Part shown: piece after piece, positions 1 through 6,439 of the stretch
Numbering within the stretch: position 1 is the first letter of the stretch
Layout of the letters: each line of letters starts with the position of its first letter
Assembly (NCBI GenBank): GCA_029856525.1
Contig: JAHQXC010000071.1
Span: 1 to 6,439, forward strand
Reading direction: 5' to 3'
DNA: 6,439 bases
Source: Candidatus Odinarchaeia archaeon
GTDB taxonomy: Archaea > Asgardarchaeota > Odinarchaeia > Odinarchaeales > Odinarchaeaceae
The notes under the pieces: generated by a model
Told to the model about the DNA's origin: nothing
What the model saw: the letters and a program-made list of their open reading frames with translations, nothing else
Database searches by the model: none
Position numbers and translations under genes: made by a program

Positions 1-211
1 TGAGGAGTCTGTTAGAGAAGAGGTTGAAAGCGTGGAGTCATCTGAATCTGAGATGAAGTATTATGCAGATGAGCTGCGTAAACTGGAAGGTTTAACAGAG
101 AGAGATATTAAACAGATATTAAATGAGATGAAAGATCTTTCTGAAGATGAAAGGAAAACAATGCTGGAAGCTTTAAAAGAATCCTATTTATCGAAGAATG
201 ATGAGATTTAA
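1..211 (+). CDS. 3' end of a hypothetical protein (5'-partial; acidic linker plus C-terminal helical domain)
   Basis: Frame 2 is open from nt 2 to TAA at 209-211: EESVREEVESVESSESEMKYYADELRKLEGLTERDIKQILNEMKDLSEDERKTMLEALKESYLSKNDEI*. Purine-rich coding-like composition; ends 16 bp before the next co-oriented gene. Not in the ORF track because the start lies outside the window. Confidence 0.85.
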   Translation, partial: EESVREEVESVESSESEMKYYADELRKLEGLTERDIKQILNEMKDLSEDERKTMLEALKESYLSKNDEI

Positions 212-227
212 TTAAAGATAAAAGCTG

Positions 228-1328
228 GTGGAGACGGTGCCTGAGGGAATAATAGTCGGGAAATGGGATGATGTGCAGGGTGTAGTGTTATACGCTAAAT
301 ACCCTGAAACAGTTGAGATAGCGGACTATAATCTTATGAGAATATTCACAAGCCACGCGGTAGGTGAAGCTCAAGCAGGGTTTCTAGCACTAACACTTGA
401 AGAGGAGAATATGAATGTTGCAAGCTATTTTACAGGAATACACCAGAAACCGCAGTATTTTATATCACTGCTTCTCTCAAAAGACGAGGATGCGAAAACA
501 TATGAGGAGAGCCTCCTAGATATCGCCACAGAGCTGCTTGAAAAAATAGATGCACCTAATTTTAACGAGATTCTAGCCGAAGCTTTTCAAAGACTTTCTA
601 AAGCAATTGTGTTAACCGATGAGCAGAGGCTTGCACTTATATTCAAAGATGATATTCATAAACTAGCCTATGAGAGATTAATTAAAGGTCCAGCTACAAT
701 TAGTATGATAGCTAATTATATTCAAGAAAACAGCGGTGTAACAAGAGTTAACCCTGATATATTGATTTCACCGCTCATAAGACTAGGCTATGCTCTTCAG
801 GGATGGGTCCCCGGATATGCTGAACAGTTTGTGTTTCTAGTTAGAGATTTTACTATAACAAGAGCGCCGGCTGAGAAGATTATTAAACAAGCGGTTAAAG
901 GGGAGCCGACTCAAAGGATTGCTAGAAGATATTTAAGAAACGTTAAAGAATTTTTCACAAATTATAATGTTAACGTTGATGAAAGCGGGGATTTAGCTGA
1001 AATTCTTATAAACCCTGAATACTATGAGATAATAAAAATGCTTAGAGAGAAGCCTCTTCTTTTAACAGAGATTAAGTCCTGTTTAGGGCAGCAGAAACTA
1101 GGCTGTGAAGCGGCTTTAAAAAACCTAAGTGAAAAGAATATTATTGAAGTATACCCGGCAGAGAATCAGGGGGATAACTGGATTTTATTAAAATCCGATA
1201 TTATCATTCATACATTCTTCCCTGAGTATCTTCTAGAAGCTTTAAGGGGTAAGCTAGCCTCAGGGGAGTTATCATCTGAAACAGTTATAAAACACCTAGA
1301 GCTTTTACAGCAAAATTATTCCCCGTAG
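228..1328 (+). CDS. Longin/uDENN-like domain protein with two tandem winged-helix-like modules (Asgard-type, NPRL2/folliculin/DENN-like N-terminus)
   Basis: 366 aa. The N-terminus GIIVGKWDDVQGVVLYAKYP fits the beta1-[FW]D-x3-G-x5-YP pattern of uDENN/NPRL2/folliculin-type longin domains, followed by a longin-like helix/strand pattern to about aa 125. Residues 130-246 and 251-364 align with each other as helix-turn-helix plus beta-wing modules. The CDS is secure; the family call is by eye. Confidence 0.7.
   Translation: METVPEGIIVGKWDDVQGVVLYAKYPETVEIADYNLMRIFTSHAVGEAQAGFLALTLEEENMNVASYFTGIHQKPQYFISLLLSKDEDAKTYEESLLDIATELLEKIDAPNFNEILAEAFQRLSKAIVLTDEQRLALIFKDDIHKLAYERLIKGPATISMIANYIQENSGVTRVNPDILISPLIRLGYALQGWVPGYAEQFVFLVRDFTITRAPAEKIIKQAVKGEPTQRIARRYLRNVKEFFTNYNVNVDESGDLAEILINPEYYEIIKMLREKPLLLTEIKSCLGQQKLGCEAALKNLSEKNIIEVYPAENQGDNWILLKSDIIIHTFFPEYLLEALRGKLASGELSSETVIKHLELLQQNYSP
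615..1319 (+). repeat. Protein-level internal duplication (aa 130-246 vs aa 251-364) in the 228-1328 gene
   Basis: LALIFKDDIHKLAYERLIKGPATISMI vs LAEILINPEYYEIIKMLREKPLLLTEI; LIRLGY...FVFLVRDFTITRAP vs LSEKNI...WILLKSDIIIHTFFP; GEPTQRIARRYLRNVKEFFTNY vs GELSSETVIKHLELLQQNY. No obvious DNA-level identity, so an old duplication. Confidence 0.7.
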
Positions 1329-1337
1329 ACTAATCGC

Positions 1338-2480
1338 TTAATCGAACACATGGTTTTTATTACTGAATAATTCTTCGGGTATAAGATATACGATTACCGC
1401 TCCCGAGATTATTATAATACTTAGAATAGTGAATATCAGTGTAATGCTTCCTATAACGAAAAGCGGTTCAAGTAAAGCTATTGAGATCATTCTAACACCG
1501 CCTAATGCTATACTTGTGAAAAGTATTAGCGCGTTATATTTTTCTCTACTTATTGAGCGGGAGAGTAAACCCCAGAAAGGAGCGGCGATGAGAGCTATAC
1601 TGAGAGAGGATATCCACGATCCCACTGTGAACACCTCTACCGACTTCGAGAACCCGATGATAATCATTGATAGCCCCTCCATAATTAAAGCTGAGATTAA
1701 TAATATTCTAGCCTTGTTACGATCGAAGAAACGGCCTGCAATAATATAGCTTAGAGATACGAGGATGTTAACAATCGTCTGAATGATACCCATGTTAAAC
1801 TCTGTGCCTGCTAATTGATTTAATAGAACTGGTTGATAGATCCATCCTGGAACACTGATAACCCCGTACACTAAGGTGAATAAGAGTATAATTAATCCTG
1901 TTTTATTATTCAAATAGTTTTTTAGAGCACTGAAATCTATTTTTTTAAAATTCCAGTTGAATCTTCTTATTAGAAGCGCTGATAAAACAGCCGGGATTAG
2001 TAGGAGAAGAGAAATCACGAAGAGTTCACCGTAGCCTATATAAGTTATGATAAATCCGCCGATTATAGGACCTATCATTGAAGCTGTGTTCATTAAACTA
2101 TATAATAATCCGATTTTAAAACCTCTATTCGATTTAGGCAGGTAGATTGCAGCTAAATCCATAACAGACCAGTATAATCCGATAGCTAACCCGAAGGTTA
2201 ACGCCATAATATGCCAGTTTAAATACGAGTACAGCGAGTAATAGAAGAATCCTCTTATTAAAAGAGATAAAGCCATTAGAATATGCCCTTTATTCATAAA
2301 GAATAGCAGGGATAGCGTTGAACTTAATATGTTGAATGCGAACATTATAATGAAGAATAAGGATAACTCGGATAAGTTTAAGCCTGCTTTTAACAGGAAA
2401 ATAGGTAGAAAAATCCCTATAGAACTGTGAGAGATACTTCTAAAGATTTCTGTTATATATAATCGGTTCAAAGTATCCAT
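1338..2480 (-). CDS. Major facilitator superfamily (MFS) transporter, substrate unknown
   Basis: 380 aa, about 12 hydrophobic segments in two halves. MFS motif-A-like loop GRFFDRNKAR in the C-half, GPIIGGFII in TM5, and a basic central loop (IRRFNWNFKKIDF). Confidence 0.92.
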   Translation of the reverse strand: MDTLNRLYITEIFRSISHSSIGIFLPIFLLKAGLNLSELSLFFIIMFAFNILSSTLSLLFFMNKGHILMALSLLIRGFFYYSLYSYLNWHIMALTFGLAIGLYWSVMDLAAIYLPKSNRGFKIGLLYSLMNTASMIGPIIGGFIITYIGYGELFVISLLLLIPAVLSALLIRRFNWNFKKIDFSALKNYLNNKTGLIILLFTLVYGVISVPGWIYQPVLLNQLAGTEFNMGIIQTIVNILVSLSYIIAGRFFDRNKARILLISALIMEGLSMIIIGFSKSVEVFTVGSWISSLSIALIAAPFWGLLSRSISREKYNALILFTSIALGGVRMISIALLEPLFVIGSITLIFTILSIIIISGAVIVYLIPEELFSNKNHVFD

Positions 2481-2529
2481 AGTATATCATTTCTTTAACT
2501 TGTGGCGATTGAAGAAATATTAAGATTAA

Positions 2530-2545
2530 TATTAAAGCTTTTCTT
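2530..2545 (-). promoter_or_regulatory. BRE-TATA promoter candidate for the MFS gene
   Basis: Minus strand reads AAGAAAAG-CTTTAATA (purine-rich BRE 2545-2538, TATA 2537-2530), about 50 bp upstream of the MFS ATG. Confidence 0.6.
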
Positions 2546-2547
2546 AG

Positions 2548-2558
2548 GTAACTGTTAC
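2548..2558. promoter_or_regulatory. Perfect palindrome GTAAC-T-GTTAC just upstream of the MFS BRE; possible operator
   Basis: Dyad seen directly; its position next to the BRE is where archaeal TFB-recruiting regulators bind. Function is inferred. Confidence 0.35.
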
Positions 2559-2565
2559 TGTAATG

Positions 2566-2586
2566 AAAAAACTTAGATTTCTAAAA
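2566..2586 (-). terminator. U-tract terminator candidate for rfcL
   Basis: Minus strand just after the rfcL stop reads TTTTAGAAATCTAAGTTTTTT: a T4 run, a small TTAGA/TCTAA dyad and a T6 run, typical of archaeal oligo(dT) termination. Confidence 0.5.
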
Positions 2587-2591
2587 CTATT

Positions 2592-3839
2592 TTACCGTGA
2601 TTTTCTAACCACGCCGGTAAGCCAGTTAACCTCCTCGTCTGCGAAGTCGAAGTATTCTGCTAGTTTAGCGGCTTTACTAGGATTATTTTGAAAAATTATT
2701 TTAAGAAATGGGAGGAAAACAGAGTGTGCTTTTTTAGCGCTAACATGACATTTCAACTTTATTTTTAAACAAATATTTTCAACTAATTCCCTCTCCTTTT
2801 TCGAAGCGCTTAGAAGATTTATCCAAGAGGGAAACTGGTATTGTTTATACCCGTATTTATCGGTGACAGCTGATGAAACACCGGCTGTCATAAGAAGGAT
2901 GAAATATTTTAGGATACTCCAATTATTTGTTCGAATTATTTTAGATAGGAGTATATCCGCTTTTGAAAGGTAATCGTAGATGTTTTTAAGTTCCACCGGT
3001 GTTTTAGCGTGGAGATAAGCGTTTTCGGAAACCCATTTAAAGAACATATCATAGTCCATATCTACTGTGTTGAATGCTGCTCTAGCAGCCTCTAAGGTTT
3101 TAGCTCCGAAAAGCTGTTTTAACGCTTCGAAAACCTGCACGGTTCTATCACGGCTACCGGTGAAAACAATCTCGCTTTCACGTAAAACTTTCACACCTTC
3201 AGCGAAAAACTGTAGGTCGTTGATTGCGGAACGTATATCTCCGCCACTAGCTTCAGCTATCTTCTTCAAAGCAGCCTCCTCATATTCAACGCCTTCAAGT
3301 TCACAGATCTTTTTAAGAATATTTAATATACTGGCTGCGGTGACCCTCCTATACTGCACTGTTAGACATAAATCTCTTATAGGCTTCAAGTTTGGAGACC
3401 AAGGGTCGTTTGCCGTCATTATTATCGGGTTGACGGTGGATTTTAATATTTTAATAAGCTCGTTGATACCTCCTTTATCCTCGCTGCCTGAGATACCGTC
3501 AACTTCATCTATTAGTATTATTCTAATTTTCGAGGGGAGTAAGCTTGCCTGAATTGAAGCAGCTCCGACGATTTTTTTCATGCTTTCAGCGTTACGTTTA
3601 TCTGACGCATTTACTTCGAGAATGTCAAGGTTTAGCTGTTGAGCTATAGCGTGAACTGTTGCAGTTTTACCTGTCCCAGGAGGTCCGTATAATAAAAGTG
3701 CTTTTTTATCACGTTTACCGTTAATCCAGTCTTCAACCCATTTTAAGACTTCTTTAGCTTTAGCGTTATTACCTGTTATCTCATCAACTGTTTTAGGCCT
3801 GTATTTTTCCGCCCATAGTTGTTCGGCTCTAGCTATCAT
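2592..3839 (-). CDS. rfcL: Replication factor C large subunit (clamp loader)
   Basis: 415 aa. RFC box LWAEKYRPK, Walker A GPPGTGKT, NASD motif, Walker B ILIDEVDG, IIMTANDPW and GDIRSAINDLQ. The SRC motif of small subunits is absent, and the long C-terminal collar domain is that of large subunits. Weak SD-like AGGCGA upstream (3849-3844). Confidence 0.96.
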   Translation of the reverse strand: MIARAEQLWAEKYRPKTVDEITGNNAKAKEVLKWVEDWINGKRDKKALLLYGPPGTGKTATVHAIAQQLNLDILEVNASDKRNAESMKKIVGAASIQASLLPSKIRIILIDEVDGISGSEDKGGINELIKILKSTVNPIIMTANDPWSPNLKPIRDLCLTVQYRRVTAASILNILKKICELEGVEYEEAALKKIAEASGGDIRSAINDLQFFAEGVKVLRESEIVFTGSRDRTVQVFEALKQLFGAKTLEAARAAFNTVDMDYDMFFKWVSENAYLHAKTPVELKNIYDYLSKADILLSKIIRTNNWSILKYFILLMTAGVSSAVTDKYGYKQYQFPSWINLLSASKKERELVENICLKIKLKCHVSAKKAHSVFLPFLKIIFQNNPSKAAKLAEYFDFADEEVNWLTGVVRKSR

Positions 3840-3908
3840 AGAATCGCCTAGTTTAAATAATGTTTAATTTTCTTATTTACGTTATTATATTGTTTTTTAT
3901 TTAAGAAG

Positions 3909-3925
3909 ACCGATAAATTTAAAAG
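3909..3925 (+). promoter_or_regulatory. BRE-TATA promoter candidate P1 upstream of tfb
   Basis: ACCGATAAA-TTTAAAAG matches the canonical archaeal ACCG-N5-TTTA arrangement. Predicted start site about 3948-3952. Confidence 0.6.
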
Positions 3926-3930
3926 GCATA

Positions 3931-3947
3931 ACCGTAATATTTATATA
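3931..3947 (+). promoter_or_regulatory. BRE-TATA promoter candidate P2 upstream of tfb
   Basis: ACCGTAATA-TTTATATA with a perfect TTTATATA box at 3940-3947, 22 bp downstream of P1. Predicted start site about 3970-3973. Confidence 0.65.
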
Positions 3948-3958
3948 TGAGAATGTGA

Positions 3959-4054
3959 GCTGGCGCTTAGTATATATTTTAGTTAGAGTTCTTTATCAAC
4001 TTTTCTCTGCCGAGTTGATATTAGCTCTATCTAAAGTATATACTAAACACCAGC
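3959..4054 (+). other. 96-nt long imperfect hairpin / inverted repeat in the rfcL-tfb intergenic region (putative tfb 5' leader structure)
   Basis: Pairings: GCTGG 3959-3963 / CCAGC 4050-4054; 16 bp 3967-3982 / 4031-4046; 7 bp 3984-3990 / 4023-4029; 9 bp 3994-4002 / 4012-4020; 9-nt loop 4003-4011. 38 pairs in total, three of them G.U on the + strand. The structure is directly visible; its function is unknown. Confidence 0.85.
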
Positions 4055-4056
4055 AG

Positions 4057-4072
4057 TATTAATATTTACGGT
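4057..4072 (-). promoter_or_regulatory. Minus-strand BRE-TATA-like element facing P1/P2 (possible rfcL or antisense promoter)
   Basis: Minus strand reads ACCGTAAA-TATTAATA, a near mirror of P2 (ACCGTAATATT at 3931-3941). It overlaps the tfb SD. Confidence 0.4.
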
Positions 4073-4074
4073 GA
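4070..4074 (+). promoter_or_regulatory. Shine-Dalgarno site of tfb
   Basis: GGTGA 6 nt upstream of the ATG at 4081, indicating a leadered mRNA. Confidence 0.7.
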
Positions 4075-4080
4075 ATTTAT

Positions 4081-5022
4081 ATGTCTAAAGTTTTAGAGAA
4101 AAAAGATAAAAATCAACTGGGCTTAGCTTGCCCAGAGTGCGGTAGCACTGAGCTTATTCGCGATTATACTAGAGGGGAGAGTATTTGCAGTAACTGCGGT
4201 TTAGTTATCCATGAACATATGGTTGACTCAGGCCCGGAGTGGAGGGCTTTCACAGCTGAAGAGAAAAATCAGAGAAGCAGAGTCGGCGCGCCGACCACTT
4301 TTAGAATGCCGGATAAAGGTTTAAGCACAATGATAGGTAAACAGAACACAGACAGCTTCGGTAAAAAACTATCAGCTAAGAAGAGAAGATTAATGTATCG
4401 TTTAAGAAAATGGAATTTTAGAAGCATAATACACTCGTCTAAGAGAAGAAACCTAGCTCACGCCATGTCGGAGATGCAGCGGCTGGCCAGTCAAATGGGT
4501 ATCTCACGTGATATAATGGAGACCGCGGCAGTCCTATATAGGAAAGTTATTGAAAACGGTTTAACCAGAGGCAGATCAATAGATGCTATGATAGCCGCCT
4601 CCCTGTACCTTGCATGCCGGCTTCACAATTTACCAAGACCGTTAGATGAAATAGAACAGTACTCACGGTTCGATCGAAAAGAATTAGGGTACTGTGTTAG
4701 AACAATTCTATCTAAGCTTAAAATAAAAGTCCCCAGAGCTAAGGCGACCGACTTCATACCAAGATTCGGTAACGAGCTCGGACTCTCAGCTAAAACACAG
4801 AGAACAGCTATTAAAATACTAGAGCAGGCTAGAGAGAAGGGGTTAACCAGCGGTAAAGATCCTACAGGATTAGCTGCAGCAGCCCTCTACATAGCTTCGA
4901 TGCTTGAAGGGGAGAGGAGAACTCAATCAGAGGTCTCCAGGGTCGTCGCTGTAACAGAGGTGACGGTTAGAAACAGATACAGGGAGCTTATAAGAGATCT
5001 TAACATTCAAATAGGACGTTAA
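4081..5022 (+). CDS. tfb: Transcription initiation factor IIB (TFB), possibly an alternative paralog
   Basis: 313 aa. Zn ribbon CPEC...CSNC, B-reader GPEWRAF, DKGLST, two cyclin repeats with RGRS and GKDPTGLAAAALYIAS, and the BRE-binding helix-turn-helix TQSEVSRVVAVTEVTVRNRY. Confidence 0.98.
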   Translation: MSKVLEKKDKNQLGLACPECGSTELIRDYTRGESICSNCGLVIHEHMVDSGPEWRAFTAEEKNQRSRVGAPTTFRMPDKGLSTMIGKQNTDSFGKKLSAKKRRLMYRLRKWNFRSIIHSSKRRNLAHAMSEMQRLASQMGISRDIMETAAVLYRKVIENGLTRGRSIDAMIAASLYLACRLHNLPRPLDEIEQYSRFDRKELGYCVRTILSKLKIKVPRAKATDFIPRFGNELGLSAKTQRTAIKILEQAREKGLTSGKDPTGLAAAALYIASMLEGERRTQSEVSRVVAVTEVTVRNRYRELIRDLNIQIGR

Positions 5023-5062
5023 AGATAAAATAAGGTTAGTTCAAAAAGAAACGGCGGTGTAA

Positions 5063-5245
5063 ATGATATACCTTGTCGCAGCGGTAATCTTATTAATCAT
5101 AGCTGTGATCTTCACTCTATCACTATTAAGTGATCTACCTGAGAAAGATAACCTTAAACTGGGTAAAACCATTCCATTAACGATAATAGTGAGCCTAACA
5201 TTAGGCTTCGGATTGCATTTCCTTCTCCTAGCATTAGGAGTATAA
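5063..5245 (+). CDS. ost5: OST5/TMEM258-like two-transmembrane microprotein (oligosaccharyltransferase accessory subunit-like)
   Basis: 60 aa with two hydrophobic helices separated by a short charged loop (SDLPEKDNLKLGK). The C-terminal SLTLGFGLHFLLLALGV closely resembles the conserved second helix of human TMEM258 as recalled (SLFMGFGVLFLLLWVGI). GGTG SD-like at 5056-5059. An in-frame TAA directly upstream fixes the start. Confidence 0.7.
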   Translation: MIYLVAAVILLIIAVIFTLSLLSDLPEKDNLKLGKTIPLTIIVSLTLGFGLHFLLLALGV

Positions 5246-5286
5246 TAATTCCACGCGATCTTTGTTAAACTCTTAAAGGTGGTTTA

Positions 5287-5478
5287 TTGACTTTTAAATT
5301 TTCAATTAAAAAAGAGAGTATTCGAGAAGAGGAAATGATACTTATAAAAAGCGAGCCTTTAACCGATACTAAATGCGGTGTATGCGGTGAGAGATTAACA
5401 GTTAAAGTATACTGGTTTAACGGAAAATTGAAGAGAAAAATATGCTGTGATAAATGCAAGGCAGAAGTATGGAAGTAA
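5287..5478 (+). CDS. Small Zn-ribbon protein (CxxC-x20-CxxC)
   Basis: CGVC and CDKC knuckles flank a beta-hairpin-like LTVKVYWFNGKLKRKI. TTG start preceded by AGGTGG (5277-5282); alternative ATG start at 5335 (47 aa) preceded by GAGG. Co-oriented with tfb and the OST5-like gene. Confidence 0.75.
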   Translation: MTFKFSIKKESIREEEMILIKSEPLTDTKCGVCGERLTVKVYWFNGKLKRKICCDKCKAEVWK

Positions 5479-5670
5479 CCAGCCTCCTTTAATGGATAGG
5501 CTCCCCCACGCTTCATTCAATCCCGTCAATCTTCCATGAAAGCTTGCACGCTCAAGTGAAGATGATATAAAGTGCTCGAATATAATCGAGTATAACGGTC
5601 AACCTAGTGGCTTAAACACTCTACCTGTTCGAAGCTGAAAACACCGCATCATTTATGAGCTGGCGGGTAC
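5479..5670. ncRNA. Candidate structured non-coding RNA or regulatory UTR (family and strand undetermined)
   Basis: No credible protein-coding ORF. 88/192 nt are G+C (46%), versus 26/111 (23%) in the 2481-2591 spacer and 10/50 (20%) in 5671-5720. Several local hairpins and a potential terminal CCAGC/GCTGG pairing. Confidence 0.35.
5643..5659 (+). promoter_or_regulatory. BRE-TATA-like element upstream of the 5721 gene
   Basis: ACCGCATCA-TTTATGAG has the same ACCG-N5-TTTA spacing as P1/P2 but a weaker TATA. Predicted start about 5683. Confidence 0.35.
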
Positions 5671-5720
5671 ATATAGAAAATAAGCTAATAGTAGACTAAT
5701 AATTATTATATGGTGGTATT

Positions 5721-6068
5721 ATGGTTGAAGAGGTTCAGCCATTATTTTTTGAAGTATACAGCCTAGAAGATCTTGTAAGATTAGCTATCAGCGTTGTACT
5801 TCCCGCTCCAACCCAGATCTTTCATTATAAGGAGGGCGACAGCCACATATATTTTTGTTTAATCCCTGTTTTAGGATTAACAGGAGCTAAACCTGTGCCA
5901 GCCGTATATTACTGTAAAACTTTAAAAGAGGTTAAAGGACCATACGCTCTTATAAAAAGCGACGGTGAACCTGAGCAGGTAGAATTCGCTGATAGCACTA
6001 AGAGAGGGTGGCATGCGACTGTTATAGTAAATCTTAAAAAAATACCAGAGTCATTTAAATTCTCTTAA
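5721..6068 (+). CDS. Conserved archaeal hypothetical protein (resembles the uncharacterised TACK-type 'cren protein' family)
   Basis: 115 aa. The pattern EVxSLEDLVRLA...HIYF...VYY...YALIK...E.VEFADSTKRGW...IVNLKK.P resembles a small uncharacterised cren/thaumarchaeal family as recalled. GGTGGT SD-like at 5712-5717. Confidence 0.75.
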   Translation: MVEEVQPLFFEVYSLEDLVRLAISVVLPAPTQIFHYKEGDSHIYFCLIPVLGLTGAKPVPAVYYCKTLKEVKGPYALIKSDGEPEQVEFADSTKRGWHATVIVNLKKIPESFKFS

Positions 6069-6439
6069 TCCACCTTCTTTTTAACAATAACTCCTGTGCC
6101 ATTTTTCACATTTCGCAGTAAATCGAATGGAGGGATAAGCCTCCCGCAGAGATTAACCTCAGAGTAAGGCTGGGTAGCTCCGAAGAAAATGCATAAAGCA
6201 TCCCCCATAGGCCAGTAAGCTATATCTCCTGCGCTTACAGTTTTAACAGGCTTCTCTCTCCCAAGATTCACACCAGCTTTGAAATAAATTTCCTCACCGT
6301 AAAGACTCGCTTTACCTTTTATAGGAAGCTTATAATATAAGGCTTCAACAGTACGCGGAGCTTTAGTTCTTATAAGCTCCCCTGACACAACACCCACACC
6401 TATAAATTCTATAGAAATAGGGTAGACATTAACCTCAGT
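6065..6439 (-). CDS. Cyclophilin-like fold protein (DUF369/TM1367-like), 5'-partial
   Basis: Signature APRTVEAL...LPI.G.A..YGEEIYF...GDIAYWPMGDALCIFFG.TQPYS.VN..G. The frame stays open upstream of the GTG at 6397 to the window edge (TEVNVYPISIEFIG...), so the true start is probably outside the window. Stop overlaps the stop of the convergent 5721-6068 gene. Confidence 0.88.
   Translation of the reverse strand, partial: TEVNVYPISIEFIGVGVVSGELIRTKAPRTVEALYYKLPIKGKASLYGEEIYFKAGVNLGREKPVKTVSAGDIAYWPMGDALCIFFGATQPYSEVNLCGRLIPPFDLLRNVKNGTGVIVKKKVD

Follow-up and report, generated by a model that had tools for sequence, protein, structure and literature searches.

In NPRL2 and NPRL3, a longin domain precedes at least two winged-helix (WH) repeats (PMC3747258). 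Longin families resembling NPRL2 have been reported from Asgard archaea as Asgard clusters of orthologous genes (asCOGs), in which a longin domain is combined with an NPRL2 C-terminal domain in Thorarchaeota and a few Lokiarchaeota and which include two-component fusions (10.1101/2020.10.19.343400); NPRL2-like Asgard longin families were also used in PMC9834061. Here we describe a gene of similar layout from Candidatus Odinarchaeia archaeon (GenBank assembly GCA_029856525.1), located in a stretch of 6,439 nucleotides (contig JAHQXC010000071.1, positions 1 to 6,439; hereafter the window). The gene encodes a longin domain followed by two WH domains (longin-WH-WH protein) and stands directly behind the end of a gene for a type-I surface protein. 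We consider it probable that its product, which belongs to an Asgard-wide family, is a soluble and acidic adaptor in the cytoplasm that clamps the juxtamembrane helix of the surface protein and leaves its longin domain free for a further partner.

Among the described systems, NPRL2/NPRL3 (Npr2/Npr3 in yeast; GATOR1/SEACIT) share with this protein the order of a longin domain and WH repeats, give the best whole-chain structural match outside the Asgard archaea, and have WH domains that serve protein contacts rather than DNA binding, as is predicted here. Unlike them, the Asgard family has no sequence-family match, no specific likeness in the C-terminal half, no conserved arginine finger, no GP motif and no DEPDC5 context, and it is coupled to the tail of a surface protein, a link not known for NPRL2/3. 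The published NPRL2-like asCOGs are likewise Asgard-specific longin proteins judged closest to NPRL2, and the present family may be one of them. C9orf72, the non-catalytic longin protein of the C9orf72-SMCR8-WDR41 Arf GTPase-activating protein (GAP), resembles the Asgard protein in the W-D-x-x-x-G of the beta1-beta2 loop, in lacking an arginine finger of its own and in showing the highest identity among the longin matches (16-18%), whereas the Asgard glycine is not followed by proline and the C-terminal part is a tandem WH where C9orf72 has a DENN part. The longin subunits of adaptor protein (AP) complexes (sigma/mu-N) and of COPI (zeta/delta) are also cytosolic adaptors involving a tail motif of a membrane protein and a link to an Arf-like GTPase, but the Asgard tail is predicted to be bound by the WH part and not by the longin, and coat, appendage and solenoid parts are missing; we know of no vesicle system shown in Odinarchaeia. 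ESCRT-II (Vps22/Vps25/Vps36) uses two consecutive WH domains for protein-protein contacts and is the best tandem-WH match to the C-terminal half, but this match is weak, and ESCRT-II has no longin domain and has other partners. A tandem-WH clamp, the pairing or fusion with type-I surface proteins and a shared juxtamembrane motif were not found described in the searchable literature; Asgard NPRL2-like longins were already known.

Gene features and family

The original prediction, made by a model from the letters of the sequence, had assigned positions 228-1328 to a longin or uDENN-like domain fused to a duplicated WH module, an architecture likened to GATOR1 and folliculin. The open reading frame (ORF) is real, but its start is probably the second GTG at 237 and not the GTG at 228, because the 363-residue reading opens with MPEG, as in every homologue and in the database record, and a Shine-Dalgarno-like GGTGGAG lies 5-11 nt 5' of GTG 237. 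Residue numbers given below are those of the 366-residue reading from GTG 228 and are higher by three than those of the likely 363-residue protein. The features of the locus are:

2-211, plus strand: 3' end of the upstream gene (last 69 codons), encoding the terminal part of the tail that a type-I surface protein extends into the cytoplasm; it aligns to the tail ends of orthologues
92-154, plus strand: helical motif LTERDIKQILNEMKDLSEDER of acidic character, kept in the terminal part of the tail and located outside the confident predicted interface
212-236, plus strand: spacer of 25 nt with the Shine-Dalgarno-like GGTGGAG (226-232), an operon junction as read from the sequence
237-1328, plus strand: longin-WH-WH gene, 363 residues from GTG 237 (366 residues from the alternative GTG 228)
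237-605, plus strand: longin domain (residues 4-126), from the AlphaFold2 topology and VIA Z-scores of 9-11.8 to solved longin domains
264-281, plus strand: W-D-x-x-x-G loop between beta1 and beta2 (residues 13-18), the most conserved element of the longin surface
615-965, plus strand: WH repeat 1 (residues 130-246), from AlphaFold2 and hhalign
975-1325, plus strand: WH repeat 2 (residues 250-366), of ArsR/SmtB-like shape
846-971, plus strand: wing and tail helices of WH repeat 1 (residues 207-248), half of the predicted juxtamembrane-helix clamp in the LCB_4 complex model
1203-1319, plus strand: wing and tail helices of WH repeat 2 (FFPEYL, HLELL..Y; residues 326-364), the other half of the predicted clamp

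The protein shares 88% identity with OdinLCB4_001190 (Candidatus Odinarchaeum yellowstonii). Every relative that carries a name comes from the Asgard archaea (Odin, Hod, Hel, Hermod and Promethearchaeota, with Thorarchaeota in the ESM Atlas), and a language-model search of the Atlas returned the family itself alone (clusters from Promethearchaeota and Thorarchaeota). An exhaustive HMMER search yielded 309 cluster representatives, and the family profile matched 312 of 400 genomes of the Asgard phylum, usually in several copies; the genome of the window encodes two full-length paralogues and three shorter longin relatives.

Domain structure

The AlphaFold2 model of the protein, based on a 27-sequence family alignment, has a mean predicted local distance difference test (pLDDT) of 89.6 and a predicted TM-score (pTM) of 0.72. 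Residues 7-124 follow a beta-beta-alpha-beta-beta-beta-alpha-alpha topology (DSSP strands 7-14, 18-25, 51-57, 62-68 and 77-84; helices 33-46, 89-105 and 112-124). Using VIA-align, this part was matched to the GATOR1 chain 8fw5_B (Z 11.8, 122 residues aligned, root-mean-square deviation (rmsd) 2.6), a Lokiarchaeal longin (8yqg_B, Z 11.7), the SEA-complex chain 8adl_S (Z 11.2), Lst4 (Z 10.9), VAMP7 (Z 10.6) and many further longins at Z 9-10.6, including sigma and zeta subunits (Z about 9). The modelled N-terminal domain is thus certainly a longin fold, as had been predicted; the best matches are tied, and it resembles NPRL2, Npr2, Lst4 and the Lokiarchaeal longin to about the same degree.

The C-terminal half is a duplicated WH module. 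In the model, residues 131-244 and 250-364 repeat an identical order of four helices, three strands and two helices, and hhalign aligns the two halves of the C-terminal family alignment with a probability of 96.4% (E 1.1e-9, 109 columns in register), far above the longin-versus-WH controls (0.2-0.3%), so that the duplication claimed by the original prediction is real. Its motif positions were also borne out: WDDVQG at residues 13-18, AKYP at 23-26, IHQKPQ at 71-76, and a terminal NY in each repeat (245-246 and 363-364). Repeat 1 matches the wing motif L-x-x-D-x-x-I-x-x-x-P exactly (L204..P214), but in repeat 2 (L321..P332) one extra residue precedes the proline.

In Foldseek searches with the whole chain, the leading matches were GATOR1/SEAC chains with 360-460 modelled residues (E 8.6e-5 to 5e-4); a difference in domain orientation keeps their TM-scores low (about 0.26). 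NPRL2/Npr2 clusters were the top matches outside Asgard in the ESM Atlas (TM-score 0.40-0.41 over about 200 residues), followed by C9orf72. Such ranks, together with the common domain order, the two full-length paralogues in the genome, the Asgard NPRL2-like longin families already published (10.1101/2020.10.19.343400) and a weak Gtr1_RagA match of linked GTPases, would suit an NPRL2/NPRL3 orthologue that forms a longin-mediated pair with its paralogue, in the manner of NPRL2 with NPRL3, and serves nutrient signalling as a GATOR1-like GAP on a Rag-type GTPase. Apart from the low TM-scores, what speaks against orthology is that Pfam NPR2 (PF06218) and NPR3 (PF03666) gave no match at E<=1 and that Lst4, VAMP7, DENND1 and the Lokiarchaeal longin lie within about one Z unit of NPRL2. 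The C-terminal half folded alone (pLDDT 92.2) matches ArsR-type WH domains and ESCRT-II, not NPRL2/3: WH repeat 2 superposes on HlyU, BigR, SmtB and Phr of the ArsR/SmtB/MarR group (VIA Z 8.5-9.4, rmsd 2.3-2.8 over 74-80 residues, 14-23% identity), and the best tandem-WH matches are ESCRT-II chains (E 1.4e-2, 192 columns), which are weak. NPRL2/3 did not appear among the top 50 of the PDB (Foldseek and VIA) or the top 10 of the Atlas in searches with this half, which is not proof of difference. Moreover, the linked GTPases fit Arf/Roc far better (E 1e-23) than Rag, and each paralogue adjoins its own surface protein and not the other paralogue.

Of the architecture named in the original prediction, the NPRL2/3-like order of a longin and at least two WH domains (PMC3747258) stands, with GATOR1/NPRL2 as the top match outside Asgard. 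Membership of the NPRL families in particular is not borne out, and the folliculin/DENN part has to be given up, as the region behind the longin forms two winged helices and not a DENN domain. In the Pfam search with the protein, the helix-turn-helix (HTH) families HTH_5/HTH_20 gave no match at E<=1, and DUF1235 alone was recorded, below threshold; neither the single sequence nor the profile retrieved a significant match from the PDB, the top one being the Pyrococcus regulator PH1932 (E 0.024).

Surface protein and predicted complex

The contig begins inside the tail of the surface protein, and the window therefore lacks its juxtamembrane part. Complete orthologous surface proteins of 862 and 880 residues occur in two Odin genomes; they have an N-terminal signal or anchor, an ectodomain rich in N-glycosylation sequons and, behind a lone transmembrane helix (at about 682-702), a cytoplasmic tail of 160-180 residues. 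The distance from their stop codon to the longin-WH-WH gene is 33-90 nt, compared with 25 nt in the window. The second Odin paralogue (contig C47) adjoins a type-I protein of 1551 residues (locus L038, 828-5483, minus strand) with a transmembrane helix at 1324-1342 and a tail of 209 residues.

A fused form of the pair exists as well: in nine proteins of 588-2548 residues the whole module is C-terminal, about 85-105 residues behind a single transmembrane helix, and the five of them that were long enough to score have ectodomain matches to Laminin_G_3, DUF2341 or CarboxypepD_reg. The segment behind the transmembrane helix carries a common motif, which reads P-x-F-V-K-K-V-R in the fused proteins, Y-P-K-I-I-R-K-I-R in Odin and Y-P-P-L-V-R-K-I-R in the Loki type. 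When 21 juxtamembrane segments from diverse lineages were aligned, the proline that opens the motif was the sole invariant residue.

As the window does not include the juxtamembrane segment, the complex was modelled for the Odin LCB_4 pair (module 88% identical), using alignments for both chains. The complex score was 0.82 (0.81, 0.86 and 0.82 in the individual runs), compared with 0.00 for the best of three controls. According to rough counts, for which own alignments were used, 58 of 80 solved complexes and 2 of 110 mismatched pairs reach the mark of 0.82. The runs agree in at least 67% of the contacts, and the pLDDT of the partner is at least 62. The confident interface extends over tail residues 12-60, beginning with the invariant proline, and module residues 204-245 and 323-361 (add 3 for the numbering in the window); each WH repeat contributes its wing strands and tail helices. 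The interface holds 9 of the 13 invariant columns of the C-terminal half (p 2.6e-5) and 10 of the 19 invariant columns of the tail (p 1.5e-3). To our knowledge, no similar complex has been solved. The model supports, and does not show, binding of the juxtamembrane tail by the WH module.

In the mechanism that we propose, the tandem-WH module would grip as a clamp the basic juxtamembrane helix (P-x-h-h-R/K-K-I-R ... R-D/E-x-h-h) behind a single C-terminal transmembrane helix, the partner in this locus being the large glycosylated type-I surface protein encoded immediately upstream. Invariant residues of the clamp would be F-L-x-x-D-x-x-x-x-R-x-P in repeat 1 and F-P-E-Y-L together with H-L-x-x-L-x-x-x-Y in repeat 2; such a clamp, pseudo-symmetric and built from the two repeats jointly, would explain why the L-x-x-D...P wing and the helical tail are retained in each of them. 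This predicted step, which we hold to be the most likely mode of action, is backed by the fusions, by gene order and by co-conservation. That binding takes place in cells and that the longin engages a GTPase is inferred, as are the direction of signalling and any role as GAP, guanine nucleotide exchange factor (GEF) or effector.

The acidic motif at the end of the tail follows the pattern L-T-E-x-[DE]...E-[LM]-x-x-L-[SP]-x-x-E-[RQ]. In the genome of the window it is found only in the two surface-protein tails that adjoin the two paralogues (twice in the tail encoded on contig C47), with no match in shuffled sequences; the pattern was derived from the same two tail sequences for which it was searched. 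A similar motif was observed at the end of a receptor tail in an unrelated lineage (locus L065). The acidic motif was considered as the binding site and rejected, since it does not lie in the confident interface of the complex.

Longin face

Conservation of the longin domain was determined from an alignment of 137 family members. The residues kept are W13 (91%), D14 (78%), G18 (96%), P26 (99%), H43 (93%), S66 (93%), Y67 (82%), G70 (85%) and L83 (95%). No longin column reaches arginine in 50% of these members, position 16 in the W-D loop being arginine in 41% of them and valine in the protein of the window, and the loop 71-76, in which the original prediction had noted lysine but no arginine, is variable across the family. 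Its suggestion of a non-catalytic protein thus gains support: in the absence of a conserved arginine, the protein is probably not itself catalytic and is unlikely to be a GAP on its own.

The longins of the GAPs FLCN, NPRL2 and SMCR8 combine a G-P motif before beta2 with an arginine finger, whereas the non-catalytic C9orf72 has an essential W33-D34 near G38-P39 (PMC12290439). In the Asgard family, the residue after G18 is V, A or T and not proline, and there is no GP motif before beta2. The spacing of W13-D14-x-x-x-G18 equals that of W33-D34...G38 in C9orf72, an equivalence that comes from numbering and loop position and not from superposition. On account of this spacing, with the proline missing, the family resembles in sequence a non-catalytic partner of the C9orf72 type more than a subunit with an arginine finger. 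The longin would be left free by the clamp, and its W-D-x-x-x-G / H43 / S-Y-x-x-G face would form a platform for a further partner, most likely an Arf/Roc-like small GTPase with an N-terminal alpha/beta extension, or another longin protein.

Gene neighbourhoods

Within flanks of 1.5 kb, about 27 of 30 loci have an abutting upstream ORF on the same strand with a transmembrane helix 75-190 residues from its end, and 20 of those loci show the motif Y..FKYPP[LMF]VRKIR behind that helix; tight spacing, down to direct abutment, was seen in about 27 of 30 related loci. In a survey with wide flanks that covered 34 module genes, 20 have a type-I protein as neighbour and seven abut a GTPase. In three more, a larger protein with a GTPase domain is encoded no further than two genes away; one copy combines the two contexts, and three show none of them. 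The presence of small GTPase genes nearby, for which the original prediction had proposed to look, was thus found in other lineages, but not beside either Odin paralogue.

The abutting GTPases comprise 280-320 residues with an N-terminal extension of about 125 residues, and their Pfam matches are Arf (E 1.7e-23), Roc (4.9e-21), SRPRB (7.4e-6) and Gtr1_RagA (1.8e-5). A transmembrane helix called at residues 23-41 of the GTPase of locus L044 was rejected, since the orthologues score none there; the segment more probably forms a hydrophobic helix within the N-terminal alpha/beta extension. The orthologue in the genome of the window (contig C85, 5662-6573, minus strand; E 1.3e-64) has an extension of about 125 residues that by eye is longin/roadblock-like in the order of its elements, and it adjoins genes that by eye resemble ESCRT-III (Snf7-like) and Vps4 (MIT-AAA).

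In a maximum-likelihood tree, receptor-linked and GTPase-linked copies are interleaved; GTPase adjacency requires at least 2-4 changes, and GTP_L050 is the sister of two receptor-linked copies (support 100/100). The key residues of both the longin face and the WH clamp are kept alike in receptor-linked and GTPase-linked copies.

Searched with a profile of the transmembrane and juxtamembrane segment, five module-bearing genomes yielded 2-7 long ORFs apiece, among them a genome that had given no training sequence: there the module is GTPase-linked and the receptors are encoded elsewhere. In five module-less genomes (91-95% complete) the profile found nothing in four and one weak match in one. 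This co-occurrence of receptors and modules is suggestive.

In Loki-type operons, which Lokiarchaeum and Prometheoarchaeum also carry, the module gene is followed in 21 of 23 loci by the gene for a TrmB-HTH coiled-coil protein of about 650 residues (e.g., L040:10730-12679 and L041:7408-9372). The closest relative of this protein in the genome of the window (contig C21, 9434-10819, minus strand; E 9e-62) carries a longin domain of the longin-WH-WH family at the N-terminus and is a second Rosetta-stone link.

Evaluation of explanations

Several points weigh against a clamping adaptor. The whole case rests on predicted structures and gene order, and the complex model is one of the orthologous LCB_4 pair, not of the tail in the window, whose fragment, with the conserved acidic C-terminal motif, lies outside the confident interface. 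As the neighbouring loci are related, the counts given above overstate their independence, and because the five module-less genomes all belong to one family, the co-occurrence test is weak. No GTPase stands beside either paralogue in the Odin genome, the closest orthologue being that on contig C85, and in hhalign the N-terminal extension of the linked GTPases had no significant likeness to the longin profile (probability 0.5%). Finally, the shape of WH repeat 2 is ArsR-like, and TrmB-type HTH proteins are frequent neighbours.

The last of these points would fit a transcription regulator in which the WH domains bind DNA, the longin senses or docks, and the surface-protein tail sequesters or tethers the protein (ToxR-like, or with regulated release). 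WH repeat 2 superposes on ArsR/SmtB/MarR proteins at Z of about 9 and up to 23% identity, the weak profile match to PH1932 is to a regulator, one NCBI record calls a homologue a winged helix-turn-helix protein, and the TrmB-HTH coiled-coil gene is both the usual next gene in Loki-type loci and fused to a longin in the genome of the window. We nevertheless regard DNA binding as improbable. The family is acidic (isoelectric point about 4.7-5.3), and its recognition helices and wings, with a mean net charge of about -0.5, are not basic and their columns are variable, which makes the WH repeats poor candidates for DNA binders. The invariant residues are instead found in the wings and tail helices, which the model places on the receptor peptide, and many members are permanently fused behind the transmembrane helix of giant surface proteins.

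A factor for biogenesis or sorting of the giant surface proteins, comparable to the longin domain of SR-alpha (SRX) with the Arf-like SR-beta, deserves about the same small credence. It might hold the juxtamembrane segment during insertion, glycosylation and placement, or fasten the receptor to a scaffold of coiled coils. Points in its favour are the close operon linkage with type-I proteins that are sequon-rich and very large (up to 2,400 residues), the coiled-coil TrmB-N proteins in the same operon and the SRPRB match of the linked GTPases. However, that match is much weaker than Arf/Roc, fusion at a ratio of one to one would be uneconomical if the module were a catalytic chaperone, and nothing ties the locus to Sec or signal recognition particle (SRP) genes. 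This explanation also overlaps with the clamping adaptor, since both require binding of the tail.

An NPRL2/NPRL3 orthologue is likewise improbable in view of the structural and sequence comparisons and the missing arginine finger set out above.

Other features of the loci

The remaining gene content of the window is archaeal and includes genes for TFB, the RFC large subunit and an MFS transporter, a cyclophilin-like gene and a 60-residue Ost5-like ORF. The longin-WH-WH gene and the MFS transporter gene (1338-2480, minus strand) are convergent, with 9 nt between their stop codons, and this convergence is kept in all Odin loci examined. The Ost5-like ORF (5063-5245, plus strand) encodes two helices directly behind tfb and matches Pfam Ost5 (PF05251) with E 5.7e-7 and 30.2 bits (cutoff 27.4). 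Ost5 is a subunit of the oligosaccharyltransferase of eukaryotes, and the ORF is of interest given the sequon-rich surface proteins nearby.

The second paralogue stands in a conserved block that encodes a protein of 416 residues, a protein of 256 residues, a JAB/MPN protein with a C-terminal transmembrane helix, the module and a protein of 137 residues (L038 on contig C47, 5876-10175, minus strand; also L002, 16843-21092, and L044, 15273-18088). The 137-residue protein belongs to no known family, and its relatives adjoin modules in L043, L007 and L064. It may be significant that a deubiquitinase-like enzyme anchored in the membrane is encoded next to a receptor adaptor.

A stand-alone longin of the family (132 residues; contig C119, 9103-15253, plus strand) lies between a protein of 360 residues and a KaiC/RecA-like ATPase, followed by a protein of 1297 residues with a large ectodomain and about 10 transmembrane helices; this may be another membrane-coupled longin unit. 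In P0100 and P0118, the module is N-terminal in proteins of about 1,000 residues with SIR2_2 and TPR domains, a combination typical of NAD-consuming defence or STAND-like proteins.

Implications

Asgard genomes are rich in longin, roadblock and small-GTPase genes, and the role of these before eukaryotes is a central question of eukaryogenesis. The family described here offers a concrete handle on it, with a peptide motif, a clamp, fused and split forms, and recurrent Arf-like GTPase neighbours. It is a tentative and rather unlikely further possibility that the family represents a minimal pre-eukaryotic cargo adaptor, in which a cytosolic longin adaptor reads a juxtamembrane sorting or signalling motif common to many type-I surface proteins and couples these to an Arf-like GTPase switch and, in the Loki type, also to a coiled-coil scaffold. 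If this were true, the logic of eukaryotic adaptor/GTPase traffic or receptor signalling would already have been present in archaea and widespread across Asgard. Should the link hold, it would be the first receptor-to-adaptor-to-GTPase chain proposed for archaea, and the longin and winged-helix layout of NPRL2/3 may have begun as a membrane-protein adaptor.

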